Shown here piece after piece: positions 2,258 through 62,797 of a DNA stretch of 64,000 nucleotides. Source of the stretch: a virus (Duplodnaviria > Caudoviricetes); IMG/VR virus record IMGVR_UViG_3300044557_000104, positions 32,001 through 96,000 of that record; one strand, written 5' to 3'. Made by a program: the position numbers and the translations under genes. Within the stretch, counting starts at the first letter, position 1. The number at the start of each line of letters is the position of its first letter. Below the pieces are notes generated by a model. The model searched no databases, had not been told where the DNA came from, and was given only the letters and a program-made list of their open reading frames with translations.

Positions 2258-3547
2258 ATGAAAAAGTCCATTAAATGAACCCTTGGTATTACGACAGCTA
2301 CTCTAGCATTTGTTGTGGCAACAGGAGCATTCACAGTGTCTTCATATGCTGCAAAAGGTGATAAAGGTATTGACGTAAGTCATTATCAGAGTGCTACAAA
2401 GATCAAGGGATATGCAAGCGATAAGTTTATGATTTCCCAACTTGGTGGATATTATAATGGTACTTTCCGCCCACAGGAAACATATGCTACCCAAGTTCAG
2501 TACGCCATTGCCCAAGCAGTTCGTGCTCATACTTATATTTATCTGCAAGCATCTAATAATGCTCAGGTAGACCAAGCACTTGACTACTATTTACCTAAAG
2601 TTCAAACACCTAAAGGTTCTATTGTAGCCTTAGACGTTGAATCAGGGTCAACTACTACTAGTGCTATCCGCCATGGTTTAGATAGAGTTAAGGCAGCAGG
2701 TTACACCCCAGTGCTATATGGATATAAGAATTTCTTTGTATCACATGGTATTGATTATAATGGAATTGCTAAAGACTACACCTTGTGGTTGGCAGCATAT
2801 CCTAATTATAAGGTAACTACTGAGCCTAATTACCATATTTTCCCTAGTGCTAATAACGTTGGTATCTATCAATTTACCTCAACTTATGTAGCTGGTGGAT
2901 TAGATGGTAATATTGACCTGAATGGTATTACTGATAAAGGTTATGATGGTACATCTACTAGTGCTCAAGGTGGTACCAAGGTCGATACTAATAGTACAAC
3001 TCCTGCGATTAAAGCTGGTCAGGAAGCTAATAACACAGCTAAATCAGATATTAAAGCTGGAGATACTGTAAAGATTAACTTTAGTGCTACTCATTGGGCT
3101 AATGGTTCTAAATTGGCCAGCTTCGTTAAAGGTCACTCATATAAGGTATCTAGTGTAAGTGGTAATAAAGTATTGCTTAAATCTGGTAACACTTATATGG
3201 GATGGATGAACAAATCAGATGTTGAAATTCTTAGTGTTGGTACTCCTGTAACTACATCTACAGCTACTAAGAGCACAGCTAAGGTGTCTGGAACATTTAA
3301 AGATGGTGGATACACTATTACACGTCAACACGGTGTCTTCACTGCTGGACAGACCCTGAGAGTATTTGCTTATCCGGGTGCACAACCAACGGGAGCTAAA
3401 TATTTTAAAGGACAGCAAATTATCTATGATGGCTATGTAAGACGTGGCAACTACATTTATGTAAGCTATCAAATTAAAGGTGGCTACCACCATTATATTG
3501 CTGTTAGAAACGCAAATACACGGGTACTACTAGGTAGTATTCGTTAA
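2258..3547 (+). CDS. Endolysin: Sec signal peptide (interrupted by in-frame TGA at 2276-2278), GH25 muramidase, SH3-like cell-wall-binding domains
   Basis: GIDVSHYQ, ALDVE (DxE), LWLAAY and YQFTS...LDGN motifs of GH25; C-terminal SH3_5-like domain. ATG 2258 is in frame with the ORF-track GTG 2315 and gives MKKSIK*TLGITTATLAFVVATGAFTVSSYA|AKGD. Confidence 0.9.
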
Positions 3548-4115: not shown

Positions 4116-4535
4116 GTGAGTAACCGTTTAATTGATGGAATTAAAAATGAGATTGATGATACTAAAGATGAAACTACCATTACTAATGTTAAAAAGACTA
4201 TTGAGTTATTATCAGGTCGGTTACTGCAACAGGCATCAGAGGGTACCATTGATTTAGATATTAAAGATTTAAAAGACCTAACGTCAGTTCTAGCTATGTT
4301 GAAAGATTCTGGTGAAGATAATGGCCAAATGGGTACTCCACCTGTAAGTGGTAGGATGACTGTTTACTTTAACTCAGCTTTAAATGGTCAGAAAGATAAC
4401 CCAGAACAATCTGATGATGAAACCGATATTAGTCAAGGCTTGGAAGATATGTCTGAGGAAGATGTCAACAAAATGCTGAATGCTCAGTTTGAAGAACAAA
4501 ACAAAGAAAACTTTGACAAAAATAATGAAGCGTGA
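4116..4535 (+). CDS. terS: Putative terminase small subunit
   Basis: 139-aa acidic helical protein and the last CDS before terL, matching Herelleviridae synteny; assignment is by position and size. Confidence 0.55.
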   Translation: MSNRLIDGIKNEIDDTKDETTITNVKKTIELLSGRLLQQASEGTIDLDIKDLKDLTSVLAMLKDSGEDNGQMGTPPVSGRMTVYFNSALNGQKDNPEQSDDETDISQGLEDMSEEDVNKMLNAQFEEQNKENFDKNNEA

Positions 4536-4541
4536 TATACT
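4513..4541 (+). promoter_or_regulatory. Strong SigA-type promoter (sRNA cassette 1)
   Basis: TTGACA-17 bp-TATACT with extended TG. Confidence 0.85.
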
Positions 4542-4547
4542 ATAATC

Positions 4548-4744
4548 AAGTTGATAGATAAACCTTTTACATTATAATATCGTGCTAATTAAGTCATAAT
4601 CTTATCTATTAACCTAGTAGTAATACTTGTTGGAGCAGGTGTTACTATGAATTGTGGCAGGTATTCAATCGTTAAGATACTTGGCATTTTTGAAAACTCC
4701 TTTTTATTGATTGCAGAGAAGAGACTGTGTGAGGTCTCTTTTTT
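4548..4744 (+). ncRNA. Putative antisense sRNA 1
   Basis: Bounded by a consensus promoter and an intrinsic terminator (4719-4744); two 5' hairpins; anti-start CAT 4685-4687 and anti-SD CTCCTT 4697-4702. Confidence 0.65.
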
Positions 4745-4762
4745 GTTTGCCTGAATAAATAG

Positions 4763-4791
4763 TTGACAAAACATTTAATTCATGCTATTAT
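4763..4791 (+). promoter_or_regulatory. Strong SigA-type promoter (sRNA cassette 2)
   Basis: TTGACA-17 bp-TATTAT with extended TG. Confidence 0.85.
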
Positions 4792-4797
4792 AGTACT

Positions 4798-4909
4798 TGT
4801 AGATGAGTAATATCATCTACACTTGCTGATTTTCATGATGTTTGTTTTCAACCTATTTATATTTTTCCTCTACTTTGCCTTCCCCTTGTGTGCAATGTAG
4901 AGGTTTTTT
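4798..4909 (+). ncRNA. Putative antisense sRNA 2
   Basis: 5' hairpin 4799-4820, U-rich single-stranded region with CAT 4834-4836 and ACCT 4851-4854, terminator 4867-4909. Confidence 0.6.
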
Positions 4910-4918
4910 GTGCTATAA

Positions 4919-4947
4919 TTGACATTTTAAACAGATCATGATATTAT
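4919..4947 (+). promoter_or_regulatory. Strong SigA-type promoter (sRNA cassette 3)
   Basis: TTGACA-17 bp-TATTAT with extended TG. Confidence 0.85.
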
Positions 4948-4952
4948 ATGTA

Positions 4953-5091
4953 CATGGTAGGATGTTAATACATCTCATAGGGGTAAACCGCATACTACCT
5001 ATGAACTACCATTACAACTCATGGTTGTATACCTCCTTTTCCATAATATAGTTTACACTGCGGTTGGTATCCCACTTGGGGTACCTTTTTT
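4953..5091 (+). ncRNA. Putative antisense sRNA 3
   Basis: 5' stem; anti-start CAT 5020-5022 in a hairpin loop; anti-SD CCTCCTTT 5032-5039; terminator 5066-5091. Confidence 0.65.
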
Positions 5092-5153
5092 AATACTGTG
5101 GTGTTGCTATATTATAAATTACAAACAAATAAGTAACAGAAAGGATTGATAAA

Positions 5154-8100
5154 TTGAATGGTAAACAACTAGATTCTATGATTAGAGATACCTTTAATCT
5201 GGGGTCTAACGATCCAATTACACCAAAGCAATTGAACTATGTAATGGGACTAATGGTACCTTCTAACTACTTGTTGCAGAACCATACTATTGATGGTAAG
5301 CCAGTGACTTACAACATTCCTAACCGTAATGAGAATATGGCACGAGGACATCGACCTTGGCAGGTAGATATAATTAACGATATGAGTAAAAATTTGGTTG
5401 TTATCAAAGGTCGCCAAATGGGTTTAAGTGAAGTTGGTATAAGTCAAATGATATGGTTCGCAGATACACACTCCTATGACCACGTGAATTGTCTATATGC
5501 TTTTCCTAAGTAAGATGTGGGACTTTTAGGAGCAATCCTAATTGAAAAACTCTGTTAAACGGGCATAGCCAAGATAACTACTATATAAACAATAGGCTGG
5601 TAAGAAAGACTAAATCCCAATAGTAGGGGACAGAGTTAATCACCGTAGTAAATCAGTATTGTATTCGATACTGTAAATCTCTAGAGACTAAATTTCTAGG
5701 TAGCTACTAAAATGGTAGTAGTAAGAACTAGATAAGAAAAATTTTAACAGAGGTAATCAATATGCCTAAATTTAAGACACAAGATGAATTTATAAATGAT
5801 GTTTATGCTAAATATGGTGATCAGTTTTCTGTTATTGGAAAATACGTTAGAAGTACTACTCGTGTAAGAATTAAGTGTAATGTATGTGGATATACATTTG
5901 ATGCTATGCCAAATACTTTGCTCACTAGAGGACGAGGTTACAAATGTAAGAAGTGTCTGATGAGTAATCCTAATTATGCTAATGAAGTATATAAGGAGTA
6001 TAATGGTAAATTTTCTGTTTTAAGTAGTTACAAGGGTTGTGATACACCTGTTTTATATAGATGTAATGTTCATAATAAGGAGTTTAAAATGAAACCAACT
6101 TCCTTTAGAAGATCAAATTTTAAATGTCCTGTATGTAAATATAACCACGCTACTGAAAAGCAGAGAAAAACAGACACCCAATTTAAGTCAGAGTTGAATA
6201 AAGCACATCATGGTAGAATAATTGCGCTTGATAAATATGTTAACACACATACTAAAATAAAATTCAAGTGTACTGTATGTGGAAGTGTATTTTGTACTGA
6301 GCCAAATGCTGTTTTGAGAATTAGCGGATGCCCAAAGTGTTCTTATAGTACTGGTGAAACTATTATAAAAGACTTGTTTGATGATGAAGGTATTGATTAT
6401 GAGTCACCAAAGAAGTTTCCAGATTGTGTATATAAAAGGCAATTGCATTTTGACTTTTACCTAGAAAAGTATAACCTTCTTATTGAATTTGATGGGGAAC
6501 AGCATAATAAAGCTGTTGACTTCTTTGGTGGGGAGGAATACTTAAAAGATTATAAAATACGAGATAGTATTAAAAATGAATATGCTATTAAAAATAATAT
6601 TAATTTAATGCGTATACCATATATTAGAGATAAAAATGAAGTTTGCAAAATAATAATGAACTTTATTAAATATAAATCATCAGATTACCTTGTTAATAAA
6701 TAAGTAAAGCAGAGACTCTTATACCAAAAGTTAAGAGTAAGAGATAGTCCACTCCCTAAATAAATATTGGGAAACCAAGGGTATAAAGAACATATAAGCA
6801 AATGAACACATTCTACAAGCAACGTCTAAAGCCTGAGTTTACATCAGGTGGGTATTATAGTAGTTTGGTAGATGAAAAGCATGGAATGTCTATGGATCAA
6901 ATGAACATTAGAGATTCGTCAGTAACATTCCGTACATCAAGTAAGGGAGCAAGTCTTGAAGGACTCAAGGTTGACCTTGCTTCGTTGGATTTATAATAAG
7001 TCCAGTATTGTAGTAATATAATAATATAAACACTGTTAAACGGGCATAGCCAATATAACTACTATATAAACAATAGGCTGGTAAGAAAGACTAAATCCTA
7101 GTAGTAGAGGGCAGAGTTAATCACCGTACTAAATTAGTAGAAATACTATACAGGTCTAACGACTATCGAACAGGGAGTTAATTAAATGGAATTAACAAGA
7201 CTTAGTAGAGTAAAACTCATAGTAATATGAGAGGAAAAGCAGTGAGTCCTACACCAAAAGGTAGGATTAAGAGATAGTCTAAACCCTAAATAAATATTGG
7301 GAAACCAAGGGTACTAATTGGAATATGACAGATTGAGTCCTTTAGCTGAGCAATCAGCTATTCAATCAATGGCATCATCTAAGTATCAATTACTAAGAAG
7401 ATGGTCAACGCCTACAACAAGCCACTATGGTATCCACAAATTGTTTGAACAATCAGATCAACGATTCTGGACTCATAAATGCCCACATTGTGGATATTGT
7501 CAAGTAATGGATTATGATAAAAATATTAAACTTCTTAATAAAGATGGTATTGATGTCATTGGTAAAAAAGTATACCCTGGAACCTTTCAATATGTTTGTC
7601 AGAAATGTGGTAAGCCACTAGACAGATGGTATGACGGATTTTGGGATATTACATCACCCGGTGATGGTGGTCGTGCTCATGGGTACTCACTATCACAAAT
7701 GGACTGTGTGTGGATCAGTGCTTCAAAACTTAAAGAATCTGAAATGAATGCACCAAGTAAATCATACTTCTACAACTATAGTTTAGGTCGCCCATATCAA
7801 GATGATAGTTTATCCTTTAAGAGTGCAGATGTTTATTCTCACATTGCAGACTATGATCGTCCATTTGATAGAAGCAACTACACCCTAGTATCCGCTGGAA
7901 TTGATTGGGGTTAAATCTTAGCTCCACTATAGAGTAATCTATAGGAAAATAAAACACTGTTAAACGGGCATAGCCAATATAACTACTATATAAACAATAG
8001 GCTGGTAAGAAAGACTAAATCCTAGTAGTAGAGGACAGAGTTAATCACCGTAGTAAATCAGTAGTATAATAAATACTGTAAATCTCTAGAGACTATCGAA

Positions 8101-10222
8101 CAGGGAGTTAATTAAATGGAATTAACAAGACTTAGTAGAGTAAAACTCATAGTAATATGAGAGGAAAAGCAGTGAGTCCTACACCAAAAGGTAGGATTAA
8201 GAGATAGTCCAAGCCCTAAACAAATATTGGGAAACCAAGGGTATAAACTGGAGCACAATCATACCCTTACCATAATGGGAATGACTGATTCTGGTAGAAT
8301 TGATTTTATGCACCTCAAGGAAATTCCAAGAGCATTAGGTGCTGAGCATATTGAGGAAGACTTAGATATGGTTGTTAGAACCCTTAACCAGTTTGCACCA
8401 GATATCATAATTGCCGATAGAGGATTAAATTAAGTCCCGTACAGAAGTAATTCTGTATGTAAAACCATGTTAAACGGGCATAGAAAAATAGCTACTATAA
8501 AAAACAATATTCTGGTAAGAAAGACTAAATCCTAATAGTAGAGGAAAGAGTTAACCTACCGTGCTAAATCAGTATTATAATTAATATTGTAAAAGCCTAG
8601 AGACTAAATTTTTGGATAGCTATACAAACAGGTGTAGTGAAAACCAAATAAAAGCATACCTTTCTATATTATAAGTATATGGAAATTATATTTATAAACT
8701 TGGAAGGTGAATTGCATTACTAGAAGACGAACGAATGAAGAATTTATTGCTGAGGTTAAAGAACTTGTAAATGACGAGTACACCTTTCTAGACGAATATG
8801 ATGGTGTTTTAACTAAAATTAGAATTAAACATAATAAGTGTGGTCATGTGTACCTTACAACACCTAATTCATTTATTAATGGTGGTTCAAGGTGTAATAT
8901 ATGTAAGTCAAAAGAAGCAGGTATAAAGAAAACAAAGGATACAGAATGGTTGAAGCAAGAAGTATATAAAATAGCAGGTGACGATTATTCTGTTATCGGT
9001 GAATACCATATGGCCAAATATAAAGTAAAGCTAAAACACAATGTCTGCGGAAATACTTTTGACATGACAATAGGACATTTTAGGAGTGGTGAACGATGTC
9101 CAAGGTGTAGCTATAAGAAGCGTGCTAAGCAAAGAATGAAGACCCAAGATGAATTTAAAAGAGATGTATTAGATACATTAGGCCCTAAATATACAGTTAT
9201 AGGAGAGTATAAAGGGGATTCCATCCCTGTAGAAATAAAGCATTCATCCTGTGGAAAATCATATTTTGCCATTCCCTCCGCAGTTAAGCAGAGGTCAAAC
9301 ACATGTCCTTATTGTAGGCCATATCATGGGGAAGAATTTATAATGAATTGGTTAGACCACAATAGCATTGACTACGAAGTTCAAAAGAAGTTTTCTGATC
9401 TACGTGATTCTAAACCCCTAAGCTATGATTTCTTTATTCCAAAGGATAAGATACTGATCGAATATCAAGGGGTACAACATTTTAGACCAACTACGCATTT
9501 TGGCGGAGTACCCAGATTTAAAGTTCAGAAAAGACATGATGATATAAAGAGAGAATATGCAGTAACTAATGGGTACACCCTAATAGAAATTCCCTATACT
9601 TATAAGTCATATGAATCAATAGCAACGTTTTTAAGTAATGCAATAAATGTGTAAAGCATGGATACCATACCTAAAATTATGGTATAAGATATAGTCCAAA
9701 CCCTTAATAAATACTAGGAAACTAGGGGTATAAATTGTTAATGGTAATTATGTGGACAAACTCATTAAGTACTATGGTGAAGGAAGAGTATATGGTTGCA
9801 TTGTTAGATCGGCTAAGACTAATAATGATCCAATAGCTCACTTCACTAATACTGATGTCACCATAGATAAGTTGACACAAAACCTAATTATGTTGTCAAA
9901 CCTCAAACGTGGAGAGATTCATTTCTGGAGAGGGTCAGAACGGGATAAAGATATTAGAACATTAATTGCTCATTGGAGTAATGTTGTATTTCGTACTGAT
10001 GAAAAAGAAGATCCAGATACTCACGAGATTGGAACGCAACAGGTTATTCTAAGAAAAGGGCCAGATCATGCAGCTCAGAGCCAATGTTATGCAAATGTTG
10101 GTCTTAATAAGTTAATGCACGACTATGCAGAACGTAATAGTAATAAGACTGAGGTTTCATTATTGAGTACTGATCTAATTGCACCAGAAAAGACCTCTAT
10201 TCAACGTGAATATGATCTATAA
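5154..10222 (+). CDS. terL: Terminase large subunit, spliced: join(5154..5507,6790..6990,7321..7911,8251..8425,9738..10222), 601 aa
   Basis: Joined exons total 1806 nt in one frame and restore Walker A (KGRQMGLSE), YAFP|TYKQM, Walker B (SLD|EYD), STPT, nuclease GIDWG|EHN and ADRG|FNGNY motifs. Confidence 0.93.
5508..6789 (+). mobile_element. Group I intron 1 of terL (carries homing endonuclease)
   Basis: P1/IGS at 5515-5522, P3 5550-5556/6708-6714, P7 GAGACTA/TAGTCC, P9 GGAAACC hairpin. The 3' boundary is ambiguous by 1 nt (see findings). Confidence 0.9.
5762..6703 (+). CDS. Intron-encoded homing endonuclease (CxxC Zn-ribbon repeats plus Vsr/DUF559-like PD-(D/E)XK-type nuclease)
   Basis: Repeated C..C/CP.C modules; C-terminal FDFY...IEFDGEQH...D..KN..A....LMRIPY. 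Confidence 0.85.
   Translation: MPKFKTQDEFINDVYAKYGDQFSVIGKYVRSTTRVRIKCNVCGYTFDAMPNTLLTRGRGYKCKKCLMSNPNYANEVYKEYNGKFSVLSSYKGCDTPVLYRCNVHNKEFKMKPTSFRRSNFKCPVCKYNHATEKQRKTDTQFKSELNKAHHGRIIALDKYVNTHTKIKFKCTVCGSVFCTEPNAVLRISGCPKCSYSTGETIIKDLFDDEGIDYESPKKFPDCVYKRQLHFDFYLEKYNLLIEFDGEQHNKAVDFFGGEEYLKDYKIRDSIKNEYAIKNNINLMRIPYIRDKNEVCKIIMNFIKYKSSDYLVNK
6991..7320 (+). mobile_element. Group I intron 2 of terL (no ORF)
   Basis: Exon TTGGAT pairs with GTCCAG (U.G at the splice site); P7 ACGACTA/TAGTCT; terminal G 7320; removal restores SLD-EYD. Confidence 0.92.
7912..8250 (+). mobile_element. Group I intron 3 of terL (no ORF)
   Basis: Exon TGGGGT pairs with GCTCCA; core nearly identical to intron 2; terminal G 8250. 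Confidence 0.92.
8426..9737 (+). mobile_element. Group I intron 4 of terL (carries homing endonuclease)
   Basis: Exon GGAT pairs with GTCC 8434-8437; P10 ATTAA/TTAAT; P7 GAGACTA/TAGTCC; terminal G 9737. Confidence 0.9.
8707..9654 (+). CDS. Intron-encoded homing endonuclease (Zn-ribbon repeats plus Vsr/DUF559-like nuclease)
   Basis: H..CG...CP.C repeats; YDFFIP...IEYQGVQH...DDIK..YA....LIEIPY. Confidence 0.85.
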   Translation: MNCITRRRTNEEFIAEVKELVNDEYTFLDEYDGVLTKIRIKHNKCGHVYLTTPNSFINGGSRCNICKSKEAGIKKTKDTEWLKQEVYKIAGDDYSVIGEYHMAKYKVKLKHNVCGNTFDMTIGHFRSGERCPRCSYKKRAKQRMKTQDEFKRDVLDTLGPKYTVIGEYKGDSIPVEIKHSSCGKSYFAIPSAVKQRSNTCPYCRPYHGEEFIMNWLDHNSIDYEVQKKFSDLRDSKPLSYDFFIPKDKILIEYQGVQHFRPTTHFGGVPRFKVQKRHDDIKREYAVTNGYTLIEIPYTYKSYESIATFLSNAINV

Positions 10223-30446: not shown

Positions 30447-33400
30447 TTGGCAAATGTAATTATTCCTAAATCAGAGAACCCTCTTAGAATGCAAGCTAGT
30501 CTTGGAGGAAAAAATGTATTTAGATCAACCTCTGGTCTAGATGGAAACAGTTACCTATTATCAGGGACTGTATCAAAGGTTTACTACCAAAAAGGAACCC
30601 TTGATTTTAAATTAGACGGGTCTAATATCCCAGTACAGGTTGTTGAAGGTGATGATGGTACATTTAGTGCCCCTATCCCAGTAGACTTCTTTGGGGAGAA
30701 CTCAGAAGGTCAAACATATGGGCATTACCGGCCAATACAAACAGGAAGTAAAATTGTAGTTGCTTATCTTAGTGGTAAGTTAAATAATCCTATTGTTATT
30801 GGTGTATACCCTAGTGACTCTGCTAGTTATGAATTAGTAGGGGGTATTAGTCGTAATACCCAAGACGATACACAGGAAGATGTGCAAGACGAAGTACTAA
30901 GTGAAAAGCATGTATATCCAAGTGGACAAATCCTATATCGTGCAGGTTCTGGGGATATAGCAGAGAGTTTACAAGGTAAATCATTTAGACTGATTCAACA
31001 AGATTCTATGGGGTATATGGACGACATTTGGTATACCTATGATGCTCTAGGGCTATTTAATGATGGTAATAATGATCCAATTACATCTAAACAAACATTG
31101 GCTGGATCATGGTTATTAGTTCATGAAGATAATAACCAAGCTAATGATGAAGCAGATGGACATATGACTCGCTTCTATGTTGATCCACACGGTAAATTCC
31201 AGATGGTCTTTGGTAACTATAATGATGCAAGTAACCTTGCAGTCTTAGAAGGTTCTAAAGATGCTGGATTCACCTTAACTAAGTTTTATGATAGTAATGA
31301 ACCAACAGATAGCTCAAAAGACTATGTAATGATGACCCTTGGTGATGAAAACAAGTCAATTAAGTTTACTGCTAGTTCAGAAGCAGAATCTGCTGATCAA
31401 TCATCTACTCTAGAAGTTAAGTCTGATGATGTCTATGTGAACGGTAAGAAACTTAGTGATTACATTAATGGAGTCACTAATATTGATGATGCTCTTAAAA
31501 ACTCAGATGAATACAATAGTACTAAAGACAAAGTAAATCAAGCTACCAATGACATTAGTGAATTATCTAAGCAAACAAGTGAAGCAGGAATTGTTGCGAG
31601 CCAAGCAGCAGAACAGGCTTCTCAAGCTGGTGAAGCCGCAGCTCAAGCTGGTGTAGATGCTAAAGCAGCAGGTCAAGCAGCATTAGACGGTGCTAATGAT
31701 ATCAAGAATAAAATTATTTACTATACCTCTATCTCACCTGAATCTGATGGAGACAATTATATTCCGGGTAAGTTTATTCATCTAACTACAACTACACTGA
31801 TTGATGAAGGTATTATTAAAAATGCCTATATTGAAAATGAAGCTGTTGATAACTCTAAGATTGCTAATCTAGCTGTTGATAGCGGTAAGATTACAGACTT
31901 AGCTGTTACTACTAGTAAAATTGCTAACTTAGCTGTTAACTCTGCACAGATTGCAGACTTGGCTGTTACAGATGCTAAGGTTGGTACCCTTAGTTTTGAC
32001 CACATGATTGGACAGACATTAGATGCTAGTCAAATTAATGTGGTTAACTTAAAGGGTGAAAGCATTGAAGCTGGAACTATCAGAGCGGATAAACTTATTA
32101 TTAATTCACTTGGTGAAATAACAAGTAATTTAGGTAGTGTTACTAACGGTGAAATTAATGCTGGTACTGATAGTAGTAGCTCAGTTGTCATTAAGAATCT
32201 ACCAGCTGATAATCCTAATGAATATACACCACAAAAGAAATCAGATTTAAAACACCAGATTGCTGTGGTAGAATCACAAGCCAATGCTGCAATTTCATAT
32301 GGCAATTCAACTGGTAATGATGTTACTGATGTTACTAAAGCTCGTGACGCTCTACTTAGTGGTACCTCAGAGTTGTTAGCAGATATGACAGCTACTACTT
32401 CTGCTAATGCAGATGATATTAGTAAGTTAATAAAAGCAGTTTCTGATGCTGTAACTGCATTTCAGAATACCGTTAATAGTTCACTATCAGCTAAAATTGG
32501 GTCAACTGCTGATGGTAAGAATGCCATTTATACAGGTACTAAAGCCCCTGCTTCCCCACATGAAAATGATATGTGGTTAAAAGATAATGGTGATGGCACA
32601 GTTAATATTCAGATTTATGGTAGTGGTGCTTGGTATACCCCAGCTCAACAAGCTATTCAACAAGTAGCAGACAAGGTAGATACATTGCCTAAATCATATT
32701 TTAGCATATCAATGCCAACAGGTACTGATTATAAAGATGGTGATTTATGGTATAAAACGACTACTGATAAAGATACTAACCGAATTGTATATACTGCATA
32801 TAAATGGAATCATGATACTAATACTTGGGAACCTATGCTTGATCAAAATTCAAGTAAGAACTATGTAGGTTCTGAACCAGCTAGTCCGCTGGAAGGTGAC
32901 TTTTGGATGGACAATGGTGTTCTCAAACAGTACCAATCTGGTACATGGACAACTATTCCTACTAAGGGTGATGATGGTGTAGCTGGTACTACTTACTACA
33001 CTCATATTGCTTATGCAAATAGTGCAGATGGAAAAACTGATTTTAGCACTACTGCATTTACTGGATCAATCTACATTGGTCTGCTGAGTGATACAACTCA
33101 GGAGGATAGTACTGATCCTACTAAGTATACATGGTCAAAGATGCGTGGTGATGATGGTACTAATGGTAGAGATGGTATTGAAGGTAAGCCGGGTGCAGAT
33201 GGTAAGTCAACCTATGTTCACTTTGCCTACGCTAATAGTGCAGATGGTAAAACCGACTTCAATGTTGAATACTTTTCTGGAGCACTCTATGTAGGTACCC
33301 TTACAGACACGACACAAGCAGATAGCAATACCTATACTGATTACACATGGGCACGTTTAAAAGGTGCTGATGGTGAAGCAGGGGCTAATGGGAATGGTAT

Positions 33401-36400
33401 TGCATCTACTCTTATTGCTTATCAGGTAAGTACAGAGGGGACTGATGTTCCTAATGGTACTTGGGTTGATACAATTCCTACTATTCCATCAGGACAATAT
33501 TTGTGGACAAGGACTACTATTACTTTAGATGATGGAACTGCTAAAGTTGCTTATAGTGTATCTAGAGATGGTAAGGACGGATCTGATGGTAAAGATGGTG
33601 TAGCAGGTAAAGACGGTGTTGGTTTATCAAGCACAACAGTAACTTACCAAGCAAGTGCTAATGGAAATACAGCACCAACGGGTACTTGGACTACTACAGT
33701 TCCTAATGTCCCTAAAGGACAGTACCTATGGACTAAAACAGTTTGGGCTTACTCAGATTCAACAAGTGAAACTGGATATAGTGTAGCTTATGTAGGTACA
33801 GATGGTAATGATGGTACAGATGGAGTTGCAGGTAAAGATGGTGTAGGTATTAAAACAACTACTATCACTTATGCGGTGTCAAGCTCTGGAACTACTGCAC
33901 CAACAGAAAATTGGACTGCAACAATACCTGTAGCTAACCCCGGACAATATGTATGGACTAAAACTGTTTGGACGTATACAGACAATACATCTGAAACAGG
34001 GTATAGTGTTGCTAAGTATGGTACCAATGGTGCTAAAGGTGCAGATGGGTCTGATGGTAAAGACGGTGTTGGTGTATCTGGATCAACAGTTACTTATCAA
34101 GTTTCAGACAATGGGACAACTGTTCCAGCAGGTGATTGGGTAACTGCTATTCCAACAGTTCCAGCAGGTAAATTTCTCTGGACTAAGACAGTATTTAAAT
34201 ATACGGATAACACAAATAGCACTGCTTATAGTGTATCCAGTGCTGGTACTAATGGTACTAACGGTAAAGATGGATCTGATGGTAAAGATGGGCGTGGAAT
34301 TAAATCCTCTAGTATAGCTTATCAATTAAGTAACTCTGGGGTAACGATCCCAACAGGAACTTGGTTGAGTGCTCCTGCTGAACAAACAAATGCACAACCA
34401 TATCTGTGGACTCAAACCACTGTTTCATACACAGATAATACTAATTCAACTAGCTATTCTGTATCTCGTAAGGGTGATACTGGAGCAACTGGAGCTGCGG
34501 GTAAAACTTATTACACATGGATTAAGTATGCTACTGATTCTAGTGGTTCTAATATAAGTGATTCACCAACGGGTATGACTTACATGGGATTAGCTTATAA
34601 TAAGGAAACTGCTACTGAATCAAGTACGGCTACTGATTATACATGGAGTTTAATTAAAGGTGCAGATGGTAAACCGGGTACCAATGGTACTAATGGTAAA
34701 GATGGGAAGACCTACTACTTCCACATTGCGTATGCTCAAAGTGCTGATGGCAAGACAGGATTTACTATTACACCAGATACTAAGGTTTCTTATAACTACA
34801 TGGGTACTTATACAGATACTACTGCAACTGGGTCAACCGATACTACTAAATACACATGGGTAGCAATGTTTGACTCAACTAAGAAACGTAACTTTACCAC
34901 TCAACCAACCACGCCTTATGCAGTAGGTGATACTTGGATGCAATCAGGTGCTACTTATTTCTGTACAACAGCACGTAATAGTGGTGCTTTTACAGCTAGT
35001 GATTGGACTATGCAACAATTAACAATTCAGTCGCTGGATAGTAGTATCAAAGAAGGACTAAGTGGAAATAATATACTATTAGATACCCAGTATTTTAATA
35101 ATAATGGTATATGGTTACCATTTTCTGGTACAGCGTCTAATGGTGAGTATCATTTTGTGTCAGCGATTCCTACAACAGACTTAGATTTTCTACAGCAAGC
35201 CGTTTCATTGGAGAGTGGTACAACATACACTTTCTCATTTTATGCAAAAGGGACTACTAAGGTATCATGCTTTATTTACAACACGGGAACAACTAGTGAT
35301 TATGCAGATAATTTTCATAAATTTAGTCTAACTTCTAGTTACCAGAGATTTACAATGACGTTCACTACTGGCAAGCCAATGGCTGAACAAATTCAACGTG
35401 TTTTATTCAGAAAAAGTAGTACCGATAACGAAGCAATTGACATAACTATTAAAGAGATGAAGTTGGAAAAGGGTAGTGTGGCAACACCTTGGTGTTTATC
35501 ACAATCAGAAATTACCACTAAAACAGGTGTTTATAAAGGTGTTACCCTTAATGATTCTGGATTAACTGCTACCGCTGGAAGTACAACGGTTGCTATGAAC
35601 TCTACAGATGGCTTCCTTATTAAGAAGAATAGTGGACAGGTATTTCACGTAGATACCGCTGGTAACTTGACTATGCAGGGTGACATTACTGCGGGTAACA
35701 TTTCTGGGGTTAACTTTACTGGTAATACTCTTAATTTAAATACAACACTTGCTATTGGTGCCAATGGTGTTTTATCTGCTAATGGTGGAAAAACTGTTAT
35801 TAATAATAGTGGACTAACTATTAAAGATGGTGGATTATCAGTAGAGGATAGCAAGGGTAATCAGACCACTTATGTTGGTAGTGATGGTACATTTGTTACT
35901 AACAAGGGTGTTTTCTCTGGTGATGTTACTACTAATAAGCTAATATTAAAGGGTAATGATTCTGATATTAATATGGGTGGTAAGTTTCATGTAGATAACG
36001 AGGGTAATTTAACTGCTAAATCTGCTACCTTAGCAGATGGGACTATTAATTCATCAACTATCAATGGATCCGAATTTTTAGTTGGTAATGAGTATTACTC
36101 ACCATTAGAGGGAAGTACACATAATGCACTATCTGCAACTAATATAGGACTAAGAACTGGAACTTCATTTTCTCGAAAAACTAATTTAGCCACTGTGTCT
36201 AATAGTATAAATGATAACTATTTATTAAAAACAGGTAATCCTATTAGGTTTGTAGGAAAAGGGGAGGCTGATAATGGTTCTGATACTAGTGCCACAAGTA
36301 GCACTAAACTTTATCAAGTAGTTAATAGTAATGTTTACGGAAAATTGGTAACAATATCTGCAACTTATACCATAAGTAATGCGATACCTAGTAATGGTCG

Positions 36401-38468
36401 AATTCAGCTTCAACAATTTGGTGACCCTAATTGGTTCCAATACTGTATATTACCCGGAGGAACTTCCGCGGGAACACACACAATAACTCAGACTGTAACT
36501 CTTCCTACTGTTAGCAGTTCTAATACAGATAACTTACGTTTCCGTGGAGAAACTAATAATTATACAGGTGATGTTATAATATCACATGTTAAACTTGAAT
36601 TAGGATCAGAAGCAACACCATGGAATGCTAGTGAGTCTGATAATGAGGCTAATGCTCAAATATCGGGAATTCCTAATATAATCTCTCCCTTAACTGATGC
36701 TGATGATCTTTTATGGAAATCTTATGGTAATGCTGAATTATATGGATTGAATAGTTATGATACTACACCCACTGCACAAACTATAGATGCTAGTTGGCCC
36801 TCTGATAAATATATTGTTCACGCATATAATGACTGGAGTGCTATGCGTTATACTAGTCCAAGTGGAGAGGTATTTAAAGCAGGTCAAACTTATACCGTTG
36901 CATTTAGAGCTAGAACTTATACAGGAACAAAAACTACTGGTCTTACTTTTAGTGTATATGCACTCAGTACATCTACTGAAATAGCTCATATAATTAATCC
37001 AATAATTACTCCACAGTTTACATGGTATCAGGTATCATTTACTTTAACCTCTGATATTCCTATTGATAATTTTAGAATTGAGCCTCACGGAGACTGGAGT
37101 GATACTGGTGGTTCTATATATTTATGTGATATGTCTATAATTAAAGGAAATATTGTTTATGGTGTTGATTTGAGGTTTCCCTTTCAGATAACTTCACAAA
37201 ATCCAACAGATATATCGGTAACACCTGTTACAATAGATACACGTAATTTATCTAGTGGAAGAACCTTAATAATTACAACTGAGGTTTTATATAATAATAA
37301 TTATAGTTCCATTGGGGGAACTATACAAGTACAAATTGGGGACACAATAAAAAGCATACTTGCACAAAAATATTCTATTATAAATGGGTATGAAACATTT
37401 ACTTATAGTATAGACTGGAATGATACTTATCAAGTAGGAAGTAATGTTCCTGTAACTTTACTTTTTTCGTCTTTGGAATCAGGAAATATTTTTGTAAACT
37501 ATGTGAATGCATATTCTGTATCAACCACACTAGATACTAATGCCCCTATTGCAGACTCGTATGGATATATTACTCCATATGGTGAGCTTAGACTAGGATA
37601 TTCAACTACTAGCACTAATGCTGATAATAACAATATGTTGTCTGATACTAGTACACTAAACTATTATGGGGGAATACTGAAACTAAATAGTACTAATTAT
37701 GATACTATATCTGCTAAAGGTATTGACTATAGGACTGATGTAATATATGGTGGGTATACAACTAACGAGTATAATGGTGATACCTTCTACTCATCCTCTA
37801 TAGATGCTTCAGGTTTATCCTATGTTAAAACCTCAGATAATCCTAATATTACCTCTAAACAAGTTGCATGGGGCTGGGATGAAATTGCTAATAGTTCTCC
37901 TTCTGGTATTGGCATGGGCAAGGCTGAGGGAGCATATTCATGGTTTGACACTAGAGACGGATTTGATGTATATCCTAATTTAATATCAAACAGTTCTTTC
38001 CTTAATAAGATAACCAATTGGAATATAAACAATGGAAAATTCTATTGGACAGGTAGTTCATTAAGTGATGGATGCTTTTGTGTAGAGTTTAATAATGGAG
38101 GAGGAGGAGATGATATGTGGCAGCATATTTATACTTTTCCTTCTGCCGGACATTATCTAACCTTATCATTTTGGGCTTTTTGCTGGGACTCTGACACATC
38201 AAACTATGGTAGCCACGGAATGCAATTAATTTTTGAACAGTCTAATGGAAATAGTAATGCAGGTGCAACATTCAAAATGTATAAGCAGCCAGCAGCCCAT
38301 AAGTGGACTAGATATAGTTTTTCCCCAATAGAGATAACGAGTACAATGACATCAAATTTAGATCATTTATCTCTTATGTTCCATACTGATAACGCTAATG
38401 GTCATTGGACATTTGCTAGACCTATGTTAAATATAGGTAAGGATCCTAAACCATATAAATTTACTTAG
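30447..38468 (+). CDS. Giant central spike / tail fibre protein with collagen-like repeats and carbohydrate-binding modules
   Basis: N-terminal OB-fold-like spike region, KIANLAV decamer repeats, GxxGxDG collagen triplets between YLWTKT and YAxSADG modules, several CBM-like domains ending KLE.G..ATPW. Confidence 0.8.
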   Translation: MANVIIPKSENPLRMQASLGGKNVFRSTSGLDGNSYLLSGTVSKVYYQKGTLDFKLDGSNIPVQVVEGDDGTFSAPIPVDFFGENSEGQTYGHYRPIQTGSKIVVAYLSGKLNNPIVIGVYPSDSASYELVGGISRNTQDDTQEDVQDEVLSEKHVYPSGQILYRAGSGDIAESLQGKSFRLIQQDSMGYMDDIWYTYDALGLFNDGNNDPITSKQTLAGSWLLVHEDNNQANDEADGHMTRFYVDPHGKFQMVFGNYNDASNLAVLEGSKDAGFTLTKFYDSNEPTDSSKDYVMMTLGDENKSIKFTASSEAESADQSSTLEVKSDDVYVNGKKLSDYINGVTNIDDALKNSDEYNSTKDKVNQATNDISELSKQTSEAGIVASQAAEQASQAGEAAAQAGVDAKAAGQAALDGANDIKNKIIYYTSISPESDGDNYIPGKFIHLTTTTLIDEGIIKNAYIENEAVDNSKIANLAVDSGKITDLAVTTSKIANLAVNSAQIADLAVTDAKVGTLSFDHMIGQTLDASQINVVNLKGESIEAGTIRADKLIINSLGEITSNLGSVTNGEINAGTDSSSSVVIKNLPADNPNEYTPQKKSDLKHQIAVVESQANAAISYGNSTGNDVTDVTKARDALLSGTSELLADMTATTSANADDISKLIKAVSDAVTAFQNTVNSSLSAKIGSTADGKNAIYTGTKAPASPHENDMWLKDNGDGTVNIQIYGSGAWYTPAQQAIQQVADKVDTLPKSYFSISMPTGTDYKDGDLWYKTTTDKDTNRIVYTAYKWNHDTNTWEPMLDQNSSKNYVGSEPASPLEGDFWMDNGVLKQYQSGTWTTIPTKGDDGVAGTTYYTHIAYANSADGKTDFSTTAFTGSIYIGLLSDTTQEDSTDPTKYTWSKMRGDDGTNGRDGIEGKPGADGKSTYVHFAYANSADGKTDFNVEYFSGALYVGTLTDTTQADSNTYTDYTWARLKGADGEAGANGNGIASTLIAYQVSTEGTDVPNGTWVDTIPTIPSGQYLWTRTTITLDDGTAKVAYSVSRDGKDGSDGKDGVAGKDGVGLSSTTVTYQASANGNTAPTGTWTTTVPNVPKGQYLWTKTVWAYSDSTSETGYSVAYVGTDGNDGTDGVAGKDGVGIKTTTITYAVSSSGTTAPTENWTATIPVANPGQYVWTKTVWTYTDNTSETGYSVAKYGTNGAKGADGSDGKDGVGVSGSTVTYQVSDNGTTVPAGDWVTAIPTVPAGKFLWTKTVFKYTDNTNSTAYSVSSAGTNGTNGKDGSDGKDGRGIKSSSIAYQLSNSGVTIPTGTWLSAPAEQTNAQPYLWTQTTVSYTDNTNSTSYSVSRKGDTGATGAAGKTYYTWIKYATDSSGSNISDSPTGMTYMGLAYNKETATESSTATDYTWSLIKGADGKPGTNGTNGKDGKTYYFHIAYAQSADGKTGFTITPDTKVSYNYMGTYTDTTATGSTDTTKYTWVAMFDSTKKRNFTTQPTTPYAVGDTWMQSGATYFCTTARNSGAFTASDWTMQQLTIQSLDSSIKEGLSGNNILLDTQYFNNNGIWLPFSGTASNGEYHFVSAIPTTDLDFLQQAVSLESGTTYTFSFYAKGTTKVSCFIYNTGTTSDYADNFHKFSLTSSYQRFTMTFTTGKPMAEQIQRVLFRKSSTDNEAIDITIKEMKLEKGSVATPWCLSQSEITTKTGVYKGVTLNDSGLTATAGSTTVAMNSTDGFLIKKNSGQVFHVDTAGNLTMQGDITAGNISGVNFTGNTLNLNTTLAIGANGVLSANGGKTVINNSGLTIKDGGLSVEDSKGNQTTYVGSDGTFVTNKGVFSGDVTTNKLILKGNDSDINMGGKFHVDNEGNLTAKSATLADGTINSSTINGSEFLVGNEYYSPLEGSTHNALSATNIGLRTGTSFSRKTNLATVSNSINDNYLLKTGNPIRFVGKGEADNGSDTSATSSTKLYQVVNSNVYGKLVTISATYTISNAIPSNGRIQLQQFGDPNWFQYCILPGGTSAGTHTITQTVTLPTVSSSNTDNLRFRGETNNYTGDVIISHVKLELGSEATPWNASESDNEANAQISGIPNIISPLTDADDLLWKSYGNAELYGLNSYDTTPTAQTIDASWPSDKYIVHAYNDWSAMRYTSPSGEVFKAGQTYTVAFRARTYTGTKTTGLTFSVYALSTSTEIAHIINPIITPQFTWYQVSFTLTSDIPIDNFRIEPHGDWSDTGGSIYLCDMSIIKGNIVYGVDLRFPFQITSQNPTDISVTPVTIDTRNLSSGRTLIITTEVLYNNNYSSIGGTIQVQIGDTIKSILAQKYSIINGYETFTYSIDWNDTYQVGSNVPVTLLFSSLESGNIFVNYVNAYSVSTTLDTNAPIADSYGYITPYGELRLGYSTTSTNADNNNMLSDTSTLNYYGGILKLNSTNYDTISAKGIDYRTDVIYGGYTTNEYNGDTFYSSSIDASGLSYVKTSDNPNITSKQVAWGWDEIANSSPSGIGMGKAEGAYSWFDTRDGFDVYPNLISNSSFLNKITNWNINNGKFYWTGSSLSDGCFCVEFNNGGGGDDMWQHIYTFPSAGHYLTLSFWAFCWDSDTSNYGSHGMQLIFEQSNGNSNAGATFKMYKQPAAHKWTRYSFSPIEITSTMTSNLDHLSLMFHTDNANGHWTFARPMLNIGKDPKPYKFT

Positions 38469-45887: not shown

Positions 45888-45951
45888 GAAGTAGACAATT
45901 GAACAAGCACAATTTAAAGGCACCCATCTTAACGGTGGGCGCCCTTTTTAT

Positions 45952-46210
45952 AAAGAAAAGTTGAGAAAACACGTTACTTTAGTTGCGTGATAAATCAACT
46001 AGTAGTATACTAAGAACCATAAAGACATTGAGTGACCTTAGATGCGAAAACCAAGTATCTTAATAAGTTGCTTAAAAGTCTTTAAGTAAACTAATATGGG
46101 CTGGGACAGCCCTTAGTAAATAGCTGTAACCTCTACCTAGAGTTAGTAATAACCTAGGCAAGTATGCAGTGTTCCTAGAAGCATGGGAATTTATTCCCAG
46201 AGTAGTTCAC
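45952..46210 (+). mobile_element. Non-autonomous IS200/IS605-family mini-element carrying only an omegaRNA scaffold
   Basis: Inserted after TTTAT (45947-45951); left-end hairpin 45970-45989; right-end hairpin 46184-46199; terminal TTCAC; 46096-46210 is homologous to the tnpB 3' region. Confidence 0.75.
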
Positions 46211-46226
46211 GACACCCAAGTAATTG
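46096..46226 (+). ncRNA. TnpB omegaRNA (reRNA) copy 1, guide starting GACACCCAAG
   Basis: Shares ATGGGCTGGGACAGCCCTTAGTAAATAGC..TAACCTCTAC...GCAAGTATG...TGTTCCTAGAA...GAGTAGT with 47685-47803, including compensatory changes. Confidence 0.72.
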
Positions 46227-46297
46227 TAGATAATCCAACAGATGTAACTGTAGATAATACTAATGATTCTACTGGGGTAACAGCTAAATAAATGATT

Positions 46298-46327
46298 AAT
46301 ACCCACCTAATCAATGGTGGGTATTTT
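46298..46327 (+). terminator. Intrinsic terminator fused to a late promoter
   Basis: AATACCCACC-loop-GGTGGGTATT-TT then CTATATTA. Confidence 0.7.
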
Positions 46328-46428
46328 CTATATTAATAAGTAGCGAGAATGCCTTAGCGAAACTAATGGAATACATGAATGCTAATGGTAGGTCAATCAA
46401 CAACACAAACTATTTAAAAATAATATCG

Positions 46429-46437
46429 TGTTATAAT
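46429..46437 (+). promoter_or_regulatory. Extended -10 promoter upstream of tnpB
   Basis: TG-T-TATAAT. Confidence 0.6.
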
Positions 46438-46528
46438 AGAATATGAGGAGTTACCTATAACATTGTTACCCTCTATAGGGTACAATGTGTACATAAACAC
46501 AATAATTCTTGAAAAGAGGTGGCACAGC

Positions 46529-47668
46529 ATGACTTTAAAAGGAGTTAAACTAAGAATATATCCTAATAAAGAGCAACAGTTAAAAATTAAACTTAATTTT
46601 GGGTATAACAGATTCGTTTGGAATCAAATGTTAAATATGATGATTACTAGATATAAGAATAATCCAGAATTAAGATTTCCAAGTGCTTTCACCCTTAACT
46701 ATTTGTTACCAGCAATGAAGGAAGAGTATCCTTGGTTAAAAGATGCAGAGAGTCAGAGTTTGCAACAAACCTGTAAAGACTTAGTAGAATCCTATAAGAA
46801 GTTCTTTAAATTACATCAAGGCTTTCCTAAATTTAAATCTCGTAAGTATCCTAAGAAAAGCTACCGGTCTACTACGCGTATTAGGTTAATTGATAACCAT
46901 CATATTAGATTACCTAAACTTGATATTGTATATTTTAAATCTGGAAGATACCCTAAAGGTAAAATCAAGAATGTAACTATCAGATTGTCTTCAACTGGTA
47001 AGTATTATGCAGTTTTACTAGTTGATACAGATATTAATAGTCTTCCTAAAACTACTGAATCTGTAGGAATTGATATGGGAGTAGCTGATCTAATGGTTAC
47101 TAGTGATGGTACCAAATACCCCACGATTAGATTTGATAAAATCCTAAGTAAAAAGAAACACTATTGGGAGAAACGGTTAGCACGTAGGAGACTACAAGCA
47201 CAAGCTCAAATAGCTTGGGATAAGCATAATAAAGTACTGGAACCACGTGAGTTATCAGACTTTAATAATTATCTAAAAGCTAAGTGCATGGTAGCTAAGT
47301 ACAATGAAAAGATTGCTAATCAAAGAAAAGATTATCTCCATAAACTAACAAAGTCTCTAGTAGAACAATATGATGTGATTAAGATTGAAGATTTGAAAAC
47401 CAAAAATCTTCTTAAAAATCATAAATTATCTAGAGCAATTGCTAATCAGTCATGGAGAGAATTACGTACTCAGTTAGAATATAAATGTGAATGGTATGGA
47501 AAACAATTAGTCATTGTTAACCCCCGTAAAACATCACAAATTTGTTCTAATTGTGGTTATGATGATGGTAAACATACATTAGACATTAGACAGTGGGCTT
47601 GTCCACAATGTCATACTCATCATGATAGAGACATCAACGCTGCTAAGAATATCTTAGCTAGTGAATAA
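46529..47668 (+). CDS. tnpB: RNA-guided endonuclease TnpB (IS200/IS605 family, IS1341-like, no tnpA in window)
   Basis: HTH KLRIYPN.EQ; RuvC-I VGIDMG, RuvC-II IEDL, Zn finger CSNC/CPQC, RuvC-III DRDINAA all intact; SD AGAGGTGG before ATG 46529. Confidence 0.95.
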   Translation: MTLKGVKLRIYPNKEQQLKIKLNFGYNRFVWNQMLNMMITRYKNNPELRFPSAFTLNYLLPAMKEEYPWLKDAESQSLQQTCKDLVESYKKFFKLHQGFPKFKSRKYPKKSYRSTTRIRLIDNHHIRLPKLDIVYFKSGRYPKGKIKNVTIRLSSTGKYYAVLLVDTDINSLPKTTESVGIDMGVADLMVTSDGTKYPTIRFDKILSKKKHYWEKRLARRRLQAQAQIAWDKHNKVLEPRELSDFNNYLKAKCMVAKYNEKIANQRKDYLHKLTKSLVEQYDVIKIEDLKTKNLLKNHKLSRAIANQSWRELRTQLEYKCEWYGKQLVIVNPRKTSQICSNCGYDDGKHTLDIRQWACPQCHTHHDRDINAAKNILASE

Positions 47669-47684
47669 CTAATAAAGGACTAAC

Positions 47685-47820
47685 ATGGGCTGGGACAGCC
47701 CTTAGTAAATAGCCATAACCTCTACTTGATTATCTTAGATATTTAAGCAAGTATGTGGTGTTCCTAGAAACTCAATAAAATAATAAAGCAATGAGTAGTC
47801 CATAATAGAATATAGATAGT
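47685..47820 (+). ncRNA. TnpB omegaRNA copy 2, guide starting AATAGAATAT
   Basis: Directly downstream of tnpB; aligns with copy 1 up to GAGTAGTCCAT (47803). Confidence 0.72.
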
Positions 47821-47836
47821 AAGGAGGCTACAAAGT

Positions 47837-48367
47837 TTGGCAATTGAAACAAACGTAGGGCACATTACACAAGCAATTAATTTTAGTGCCCATAAAGACC
47901 TGTTCCTAGAATTAGGAAAACCTACTGATTGGACAGACCCTAAAAATCCAGATAATGAAAATGCAACAACTACGGATTTAGCAGATTCACAAGCATTTAT
48001 TAAGATAAATTCTGTGTATTTAGTAGCAGAAAGTGATGTTACTGATAGTACTGAGGTGGCTGGTGATTCCTATATTATATATAAAGGAAAGCATTGGTTA
48101 ATTAGTACCACGGATAAGGCAATTGCAGATAACGCATGTTATGTATTGGTAGAAGGAACATTGGGTGTTAGTGCGCTTGAACCGTTTAAGTTTACACAGA
48201 TTGGTGTTCGTCAAGGAACTGTATTTGCAGACTCTGTTAAAAATAACACGGTTGCTAAGTCTAGTGATGTTACTACTAAAGGTAGCTTATTGTTCTATGA
48301 AAATAGAATGTTAGAAACCTATACAGATGCTACTGCTAAAGATATTAAATATCTAATGAGATTTTAG
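47837..48367 (+). CDS. Baseplate structural protein
   Basis: MAIETN..H, LGK.T.W.D..NP, YKGK.W, FYENR motifs; synteny. Confidence 0.75.
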   Translation: MAIETNVGHITQAINFSAHKDLFLELGKPTDWTDPKNPDNENATTTDLADSQAFIKINSVYLVAESDVTDSTEVAGDSYIIYKGKHWLISTTDKAIADNACYVLVEGTLGVSALEPFKFTQIGVRQGTVFADSVKNNTVAKSSDVTTKGSLLFYENRMLETYTDATAKDIKYLMRF

Positions 48368-62688: not shown

Positions 62689-62797
62689 ACTTTCATATAG
62701 GTTTATACATATAGATGTTATAATAGAGTTAAGGAAAGATAACATTTTTCTATATTATAAATATGAAAGATACAATAAAGAGTAAAGAAGTGATAAA

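Follow-up and report, generated by a model that had tools for sequence, protein, structure and literature searches.

A decayed, promoter-fused tnpB unit of a Lactobacillus-type myophage, probably with a target-derived recombination scar at its left end

The DNA considered here (the window) is a stretch of 64,000 nucleotides, bases 32001–96000 of the 118,436-bp IMG/VR phage record IMGVR_UViG_3300044557_000104, a record that is 87% complete and whose DNA within the window matches only Lactobacillus phages in the phage database. At 46529–47668 the window contains a tnpB gene, followed by the scaffold of the guide RNA (omegaRNA) that its product, TnpB, would use. This unit is probably a decayed, promoter-fused IS200/IS605 element of a Lactobacillus-type myophage that carries a target-derived recombination scar, possibly a homing scar, in place of its left end. 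The record contains several TnpB genes, and a single omegaRNA and right-end family is common to four of its loci, of which the unit under study is copy 2. The parts of copy 2 and its surroundings are as follows, in positions of the window.

46211–46434, plus strand: native phage DNA, with the 3′ remnant of an XkdX-like gene, a terminator (46298–46325) and the upstream half of the BW3TFN promoter as far as TGTTAT
46429–46437, plus strand: extended −10 box TGTTATAAT, rebuilt from the native TGTTAT and the AAT of the duplicated 10-mer; the same box is found in the tnpB-less relatives L022/L023
46435–46444, plus strand: left copy of AATAGAATAT, which duplicates target positions P1–P10; the crossover to the element lies within AGAATAT(G)
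46445–46528, plus strand: residual 5′ region of the element, with the linker GAGGAGTTACCTATAA (46445–46460), the inverted repeat CATTGTTACCC...GGGTACAATG and the ribosome-binding site AAAGAGGTG
46529–47668, plus strand: tnpB of copy 2, 379 amino acids, a predicted active nuclease with HTH_OrfB_IS605, OrfB_IS605 and Cas12f1-like TNB domains
47644–47803, plus strand: omegaRNA scaffold and right end, with an approximate 5′ boundary and a degraded right-end hairpin at 47770–47796
47804–47827, plus strand: guide region with the right copy of the 10-mer (47804–47813), running into the BW3TFN ribosome-binding site TAAGGAGG (47820–47827)
47837–48367, plus strand: BW3TFN baseplate-wedge gene (Pfam PF25691, E = 5e-35), the promoter of which is split by the insertion

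Copy 2 is flanked by a short direct repeat. As an earlier note on this DNA had pointed out, the 10-mer AATAGAATAT that begins the guide (47804–47813) is found again at 46435–46444, where it lies directly 3′ of TTAT (46431–46434) and overlaps the extended −10 box TGTTATAAT (46429–46437). The full shared repeat is 12 nt long (ATAATAGAATAT, at 46433–46444 and 47802–47813) and encloses a tnpB/omegaRNA unit that has no left end. This 12-mer occurs three times in the window against 0.09 expected, a count reached in none of 100 shuffles. Transposition of IS200/IS605 elements makes no target duplication or flanking direct repeat. The site of copy 2 adjoins TTAT (the family motif being TTTAT or TCTAT), yet a target duplication of 10–12 nt is present. 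The right end of copy 2, placed at 47803 by the earlier note, reads GTAGTCCAT, and this boundary is sound because ~55 family loci, from Lactobacillaceae and their phages, end with a hairpin followed by (A)GTAGTTCAC and diverge directly afterwards.

Alleles that lack the element were found via close homologues of the BW3TFN baseplate protein and the contigs that encode them. Two of these (L022/L023) have no tnpB at this locus and encode a BW3TFN protein that is 90% identical to that of the studied phage. The intergenic region before their TTG start contains a single copy of the 10-mer and reads ...AACTATTTAAAAATAATATCGTGTTAT^AATAGAATATAGATAGTAAGGAGG..., where the caret marks the insertion point (in shorter form, ...CGTGTTAT^AATAGAATATAGATAGTAAGGAGG or ...ATATCGTGTTAT^AATAGAATATAGATAGTAAGGAGG). 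Once 46435–47803 (1369 bp) is deleted, the window aligns with L022 over 788 nt without gaps at 88% identity, rising to 100% for the 30 nt to either side of the junction, and 46211–46434 is collinear with L022 at 84–100% identity per 50-nt bin. As L022/L023 carry the exact empty site, TGTTATAAT is the native BW3TFN promoter and the element entered after TTAT, within the −10 box. Judged by this alignment, copy 2 is inserted in the native baseplate promoter, 3′ of TTAT. All 24 nt of the guide region (47804–47827) are identical to the sequence 3′ of TTAT in L022/L023, and the guide therefore has a full-length natural target. The earlier note had predicted that relatives without tnpB would carry TTATAATAGAATATAGATAG; the string is present exactly in L022/L023, and the match to the guide extends 24 nt past the target-adjacent motif (TAM). 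Scans of IMG/VR for the empty-site string and for the 5′ untranslated region block gave no matches, and the BW3TFN relatives in that database are only 42–44% identical and come without the intergenic region. A further contig (L021, Logan SRR19631153; BW3TFN protein 97% identical) begins exactly at ATAATAGAATAT, the first base common to the filled and empty alleles, where a break is expected if both coexist in a sample. That L021 starts at ATAATAG... is a hint, though no proof, that two alleles branch here.

The origin of the left junction becomes apparent by comparison with three tnpB-only relatives that have a normal left end (L016, L018 and L019; 81–84% amino acid identity). In these the target motif is followed by 19 nt, an imperfect hairpin (CACGTTC-TTTT-AAGGACATG), ATGAATTGCCTATTG and then CATTGTTACCC...GGGTACAATG...TTGAAAAGAGGTG-ATG. 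Copy 2 is near-identical to the normal elements from 46461 onward, and its 16-nt linker (46445–46460) matches the normal left ends at 10–12 of the 16 positions. AGAATATG of copy 2 aligns with the 3′ arm of the left-end hairpin (AGAATGTG in L018, AGGACATG in L016/L019), and the crossover falls within a microhomology of 7/8 nt between the 10-mer and this arm. On this alignment, the crossover separates target-derived sequence on its left (TTAT-AAT...) from left-end-derived sequence on its right. The position of the crossover inside the microhomology explains why guide identity stops at 10 nt, why the hairpin is lost and why TATAAT is intact before tnpB. No equivalent repeat was found at ~11 bacterial copies with defined TTTAT or TCTAT junctions. 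The earlier note had named a non-conserved recombination scar as the finding that would speak against its own explanation of the 10-mer, and this is largely what is seen: the left 10-mer is duplicated native promoter joined at a microhomology.

This arrangement probably arose as follows. An IS200/IS605 tnpB–omegaRNA element inserted 3′ of the TTAT in the BW3TFN −10 box (TGTTAT^AAT). Later, or in the same event, its left end would have been rebuilt, target sequence (the first 3–10 nt, AATAGAATAT) being joined at the 7/8-nt microhomology to a point inside the left end. Such a junction would remove sequence that TnpA needs, immobilising the element; it would recreate TATAAT, so that the phage promoter now drives tnpB; it would yield the direct repeat of 10–12 nt; and it would leave TTAT with a partial self-target of 10 nt, too short to license cleavage. 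The trigger may have been TnpB itself, through a TAM-distal cut in an empty allele. TTAT and the proximal protospacer would remain on the left broken end, which might then prime at the microhomology in the left end of an element-bearing genome during a mixed infection, rather than being trimmed back. The outcome would be a 5′-truncated, promoter-fused element with a short protospacer repeat at its flanks, that is, an imprecise homing scar. Longer scars that licensed cleavage would be self-destructive and would not survive. At 10 nt in copy 2 and 8 nt in copy 3 (see below), the repeats do not exceed the length that lets a TTAT-TAM TnpB bind but not cut (PMC13507860).

Copy 2 has lost features expected of a mobile element, and the immobilisation proposed in the earlier note holds. 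The left-end subterminal hairpin, ~19 nt from the cleavage site in mobile elements and present in L016/L018/L019, is not found, which agrees with the missing left end of that note; nor does the record contain the tnpA that it had failed to see, since Y1 TnpA (PF01797) has no match in the 118-kb, 87%-complete sequence although positive controls worked. At the right end, where a mobile element has a hairpin 10 nt from a TTCAC cleavage site, copy 2 reads TCCAT. The hairpin and TTCAC had both been described as lost. This is correct for the upper stem and loop, which are replaced by an A/T-rich stretch, and for the reading TCCAT, but the lower stem (ACTC...GAGT) is kept, and the end is one C-to-T change from the TCCAC of copies 3 and 4 and of L019 rather than two steps from TTCAC.

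The promoter that belongs to the element itself reads TAACAT-17-TACAAT in copy 2 (46458–46486), with a −35 hexamer that starts within the linker at 46445–46460, and is weakened relative to the TTGCAT-17-TACAAT of L018, L019 and copy 4. It is therefore likely that the captured phage promoter transcribes tnpB. Terminator prediction found none between tnpB and BW3TFN, and the baseplate gene is probably transcribed by read-through from tnpB; CATAAT is also present at the right junction. The region upstream of copy 2 has no match in the phage database.

The nuclease and its scaffold are preserved. TnpB matches PF12323 (2.5e-13), PF01385 (1.2e-16) and PF07282 (2e-27), all past the Pfam cut-offs, and the structures of ISDra2 TnpB with E = 1.5e-57; its nearest homologues, from Lactobacillaceae and their phages, are 80–84% identical. 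The RuvC motifs GIDMG, IKIEDLK and HDRDINAA align with D191, E278 and D361 of ISDra2, so that the intact D/E/D triad reported previously is borne out, and both CxxC pairs are present. The inactivated RuvC active site that would identify a TldR is not observed. The omegaRNA shows compensatory changes in 20 of 27 consensus pairs across an alignment of 28 sequences, and copy 2 retains every helix but the upper stem of the right-end hairpin; no Rfam family was found in the window or at the locus of copy 4. The present function of copy 2 is most likely canonical, in that TnpB and its omegaRNA would cut tnpB-free alleles that carry TTAT and the matching sequence, biasing inheritance.

Five further tnpB-less alleles were recovered (L106/L107, L108/L109, L110, L111 and L024/L025), the BW3TFN protein of L106/L107 being identical to that of the studied phage. 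TGnTATAAT is kept in 5 of the 6 distinct tnpB-less alleles (4 of the 5 further ones; L111 reads TAGTATAAT) and is accompanied by a conserved 34 nt upstream, while the next 15 nt (TAGATAGTAAGGAGG) are kept in all five further alleles with no more than 2 changes. None of these five has the first T of TTAT, which lies four positions before the insertion point; G or A stands there instead, giving GTAT or ATAT and so losing the TAM, and P4–P9 differ in every lineage. Expressed as the mean pairwise difference per site among tnpB-less alleles, diversity is 0.09 in the 34 nt upstream, 0.73 at the first T of the TAM, 0 in the −10 hexamer, 0.63 at P4–P9 and 0.06 in the next 15 nt. The hypervariable patch, composed of the first TAM base and P4–P9, corresponds to columns 96 and 103–108 of alignment A4 (the equivalents of window positions 46431 and 47807–47812). 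It would fit escape from RNA-guided cutting. This is suggestive only, because the patch is also the least constrained part of the promoter and the spacer from ribosome-binding site to start codon is likewise variable (0.42).

The locus is also a mosaic breakpoint, with an L022-like left flank and an L106-like BW3TFN gene, and it is a hotspot for insertion sequences. In L108 (a scaffold of ENA ERZ28613554) a different TnpB of 363 amino acids lies upstream of BW3TFN (2020–3111), and an IS607-type serine recombinase with a split TnpB lies directly downstream (4128–5919). The junction between baseplate and fibre genes is a recurrent landing site for TnpB elements.

The other three loci of the family in the phage record are listed below.

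45952–46210, plus strand: copy 1, a mini-element of 259 bp with left-end hairpin, omegaRNA scaffold and right-end hairpin and no gene
genome 104477–104714 (L002), ~8.5 kb past the end of the window: copy 3, an orphan mini-element
genome 29643–30788, minus strand: copy 4, a second tnpB, 83% identical to copy 2 in amino acids

Copy 1 lies after TTTAT (45947–45951) and has GAGTAGTTCAC at its end; the guide begins at 46211 with GACACCCAAG. The earlier note had deduced a TTTAT motif from this mini-element, and TTTAT/TTAT is indeed the insertion motif of the family, the junctions surveyed in bacterial copies reading TTTAT or TCTAT. L022/L023 contain a match to the guide of copy 1 (GACACCCAAGTAATTG...), 3′ of GATTAT and at the 3′ end of an XkdX-like gene that is intact there; 18 of 20 nt agree, leaving 2 mismatches. 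In the studied phage only the last 81 nt of this gene remain and the genes upstream differ from those of L022 (45947–46291 compared with L022 2860–2941); copy 1 therefore marks a junction of tail-module exchange.

Copy 3 was inserted after the TTAT within ACTATATTAT^AA, a late-promoter-like motif that is repeated, with ...AAATAGAGACAAAT, at the start of several genes. The first 8 nt of copy 3 (AAGAAGAG) are the same as those of its right flank; its sister, copy 1, starts AAAGAAAAG. By this sequence match, copy 3 is taken as a second case in which target sequence has replaced the left end. In both copies 2 and 3 the half of the promoter lost to the insertion is supplied again by the duplicated sequence.

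Copy 4 shares ~80% nucleotide identity with copy 2, in a mosaic of 68–91% per 100 nt. The AATAGAATATG junction recurs in copy 4, where it lies 3′ of GCTAT in a perfect promoter (TTGAAT-17-TGCTATAAT) at a locus unrelated to that of copy 2; the right flanks are unrelated as well. The 10-mer is native to the baseplate promoter, and the 5′ part of copy 4 must therefore descend from the baseplate junction by transfer or gene conversion. The shared junction fits shared descent and selection alike and separates neither. The promoter region of copy 4 (genome 30790–31000, minus strand; L006 2647–2868) contains an extra segment of ~100 nt before the shared block, bounded by the inverted 7-mers GGTAAGG and CCTTACC. 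This leader has no significant fold (z = −0.86), no tRNA and no match in the phage database, and beyond ~21 nt its resemblance to the right flank of copy 2 is not significant, 445 of 500 shuffles scoring as well.

Several points weigh against a recombination scar left by homing. The AATAGAATATG junction of copy 4 is not explained by a simple history at one locus, and the additional step of transfer or gene conversion is needed. An empty site was recovered for neither copy 3 nor copy 4, the search for that of copy 4 having gone via a flanking open reading frame (ORF). The class-B tnpB-only relatives with the most similar left end sit after TTGAT and not TTAT, and the TAM preference of the copy 2 TnpB is not certain, its relatives being mixed (TTTAT or TCTAT for class-A left ends, TTGAT for the tnpB-only elements). 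TnpB cutting, homing and expression are putative, and the junction is also obtainable by tandem duplication followed by TnpA excision.

The earlier note had taken the match as a device by which TnpB represses its own promoter through a seed-only guide. For this to be evolved autoregulation or domestication, selection would have to keep TTAT and the 10-nt match, with TnpB–omegaRNA binding the −10 box and transcription start and repressing the promoter of its own gene; the paralogue's promoter and other TTATAATAGA promoters may be repressed as well. The geometry is apt, as the TAM and P1–P10 cover ~−9 to +1 of TGTTATAAT and the TAM is the same TTAT as that of the homing target. Binding by a seed without cutting, on which the proposal depends, does have a precedent in a TnpB with a TTAT TAM, the nuclease-active ISDge10 protein, which binds but does not cut DNA when its guide is 10 nt long (PMC13507860), and TldR repressors work with guides of 9–11 nt and a seed of ~6 nt (10.1101/2023.11.30.569447). 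The weakened internal promoter (TAACAT vs TTGCAT) would also make tnpB lean more on the targeted one. The same 10-mer follows CTAT in the copy 4 promoter, and the equivalent positions, which vary freely in tnpB-less alleles, are identical in all three copies of the phage; however, the identity in copy 4 over the 8 unconstrained nt is not significant at ~80% background (~0.17), and its tnpB is itself a mosaic of 68–91%. The self-match over the 10-mer occurs in one genome only, the intact RuvC site argues against a dead repressor of the TldR type, and the literature searched gave no report of omegaRNA-guided TnpB autoregulation. IS605 promoters are reported to be repressed by the Arc protein (10.64898/2026.09.24.754181). 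Above all, the match is fully accounted for as a junction scar. Nothing indicates that it evolved for autoregulation or is kept by it, and such an origin is doubtful. As a side effect of a scar, binding of the complex to its own promoter (~−9 to +1) is plausible and would give negative feedback; measurable incidental repression is rated somewhat more probable than evolved autoregulation. It is unlikely that one guide now serves two roles, cutting tnpB-free competitors and, through the 10-nt homing scar, binding the element's own and the paralogue's promoters as an RNA-guided negative feedback.

The junction might instead descend from a tandem dimer, formed by template switching or unequal exchange at AGAAT(A/G)T, in which the second copy starts with P1–P10 and is missing the 5′ portion of its left end, and from which a host TnpA has precisely excised the intact first copy, so that the immobile second one remains. 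This predicts exactly the order observed, TTAT^AATAGAATAT^G...right end^AATAGAATAT; precise excision at TTTAT/TTCAC-type sites by TnpA of this family is established IS200/IS605 chemistry, and the host Lactobacillaceae hold many full copies with tnpA (CL1, for example). Two rare steps are required compared with one for double-strand break repair, no tandem intermediate was seen among ~60 related loci, and the promoter location of both phage cases and the mosaic breakpoint are left unexplained, all of which makes a tandem dimer quite improbable. Chance resemblance or a generic phage promoter motif can be dismissed: the genome is AT-rich (35% GC) and TGTTATAATAGA recurs at 62716, but a 12-mer expected 0.09 times in the window is seen 3 times and relatives show one copy to be ancestral and the other derived.

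The TGTTATAATAGAG sequence that the earlier note had placed near 62716 is real (62716–62728). It forms a second extended −10 box, just past a terminator-like hairpin and 20 nt before the late-type motif TCTATATTATAAAT, and shares the TAM and a 6-nt seed with the copy 2 guide. A third exact site with TTTAT and AATAGAATAT lies at 37370–37383 on the minus strand, antisense within an ORF of 2673 amino acids (30447–38468), and may be a potential off-target or binding site of the guide, or chance. The 13-mer TATAATAGAATAT has an expectation of 0.03 in the window; as a general phage promoter motif it was rejected on its occurrence in the 118-kb genome with up to 2 mismatches allowed.

Two repeat regions lie elsewhere in the window. 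At 5500–9750 direct-repeat families (D2, D3, D6–D8 and D10; 53–182 nt) are interleaved with ORFs of ~200–315 amino acids and resemble repeated structured non-coding modules. At 32970–34770, inside the 2673-amino-acid ORF, repeats with periods of 9, 18 and 225 nt that are rich in GGT-NNN-GAT-GGT point to collagen-like Gly-X-Y tracts of a giant tail or fibre protein.

IS200/IS605 tnpB elements with omegaRNA-guided homing include ISDra2 and the Geobacillus IS605-family elements (Meers et al., PMC10055086). Copy 2 shares with them the three Pfam domains, the RuvC D/E/D residues and an omegaRNA that overlaps the 3′ end of tnpB and the right end; its guide is the right flank, its insertion lies 3′ of a T-rich motif with no duplication made by a transposase, and the guide matches the empty allele. 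It differs in being phage-borne and without tnpA, in having its left-end hairpin replaced by duplicated target and its right-end hairpin degraded, and in the captured phage promoter that drives tnpB and the 12-nt direct repeat at its flanks. Homing endonuclease genes of T-even phages spread by intronless homing and marker exclusion. They similarly combine a nuclease gene in a lytic-type phage with a cleavage site in nuclease-free alleles, mosaic flanks and variant alleles that lack the site, but in copy 2 recognition would be by RNA guide and TAM rather than by protein, and homing is putative. Cas9 is subject to autorepression by a long-form tracrRNA, which sends the active nuclease to its own promoter, where a partial match allows binding without cutting, and this arrangement is conserved across many loci. 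Copy 2 involves a different protein family and RNA, is a single instance and has a scar origin. TldRs are likewise TnpB-family proteins found in phages, with guides complementary to a promoter beside a TAM over a comparable 9–11 nt (10.1101/2023.11.30.569447). Copy 2 is distinguished from them by its intact catalytic residues, a full-length guide with a perfect natural target elsewhere, a promoter match that is a by-product of insertion, and repression that is hypothetical. The ISDge10 TnpB dual-mode tool resembles copy 2 in its TTAT TAM and 10-nt pairing, and binds without double-strand breaks though nuclease-competent (PMC13507860); it employs an engineered truncated guide in human cells, whereas copy 2 has a natural full-length guide of which the left site matches only P1–P10.

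Natural evidence on TnpB outside the laboratory is scarce. The public-metagenome set described here comprises a tnpB-bearing allele, a perfectly cleavable empty allele and several TAM-less, seed-variant alleles. With it, RNA-guided homing and escape can be tested directly in populations of phages. Should repression not occur, the locus is no more than a decayed insertion sequence in a phage promoter. If one guide does serve two roles, the locus would be an intermediate, found in nature, between selfish TnpB and regulators of the TldR type, and the hypervariable TAM and seed patch would be the record of an arms race still under way. Replacement of the left end by target sequence (two cases in the phage, none in ~11 bacterial copies) would, if confirmed, be a signature of imprecise homing and a route to a fixed, promoter-fused, partly self-targeting element, the state from which domestication into a regulator would start.

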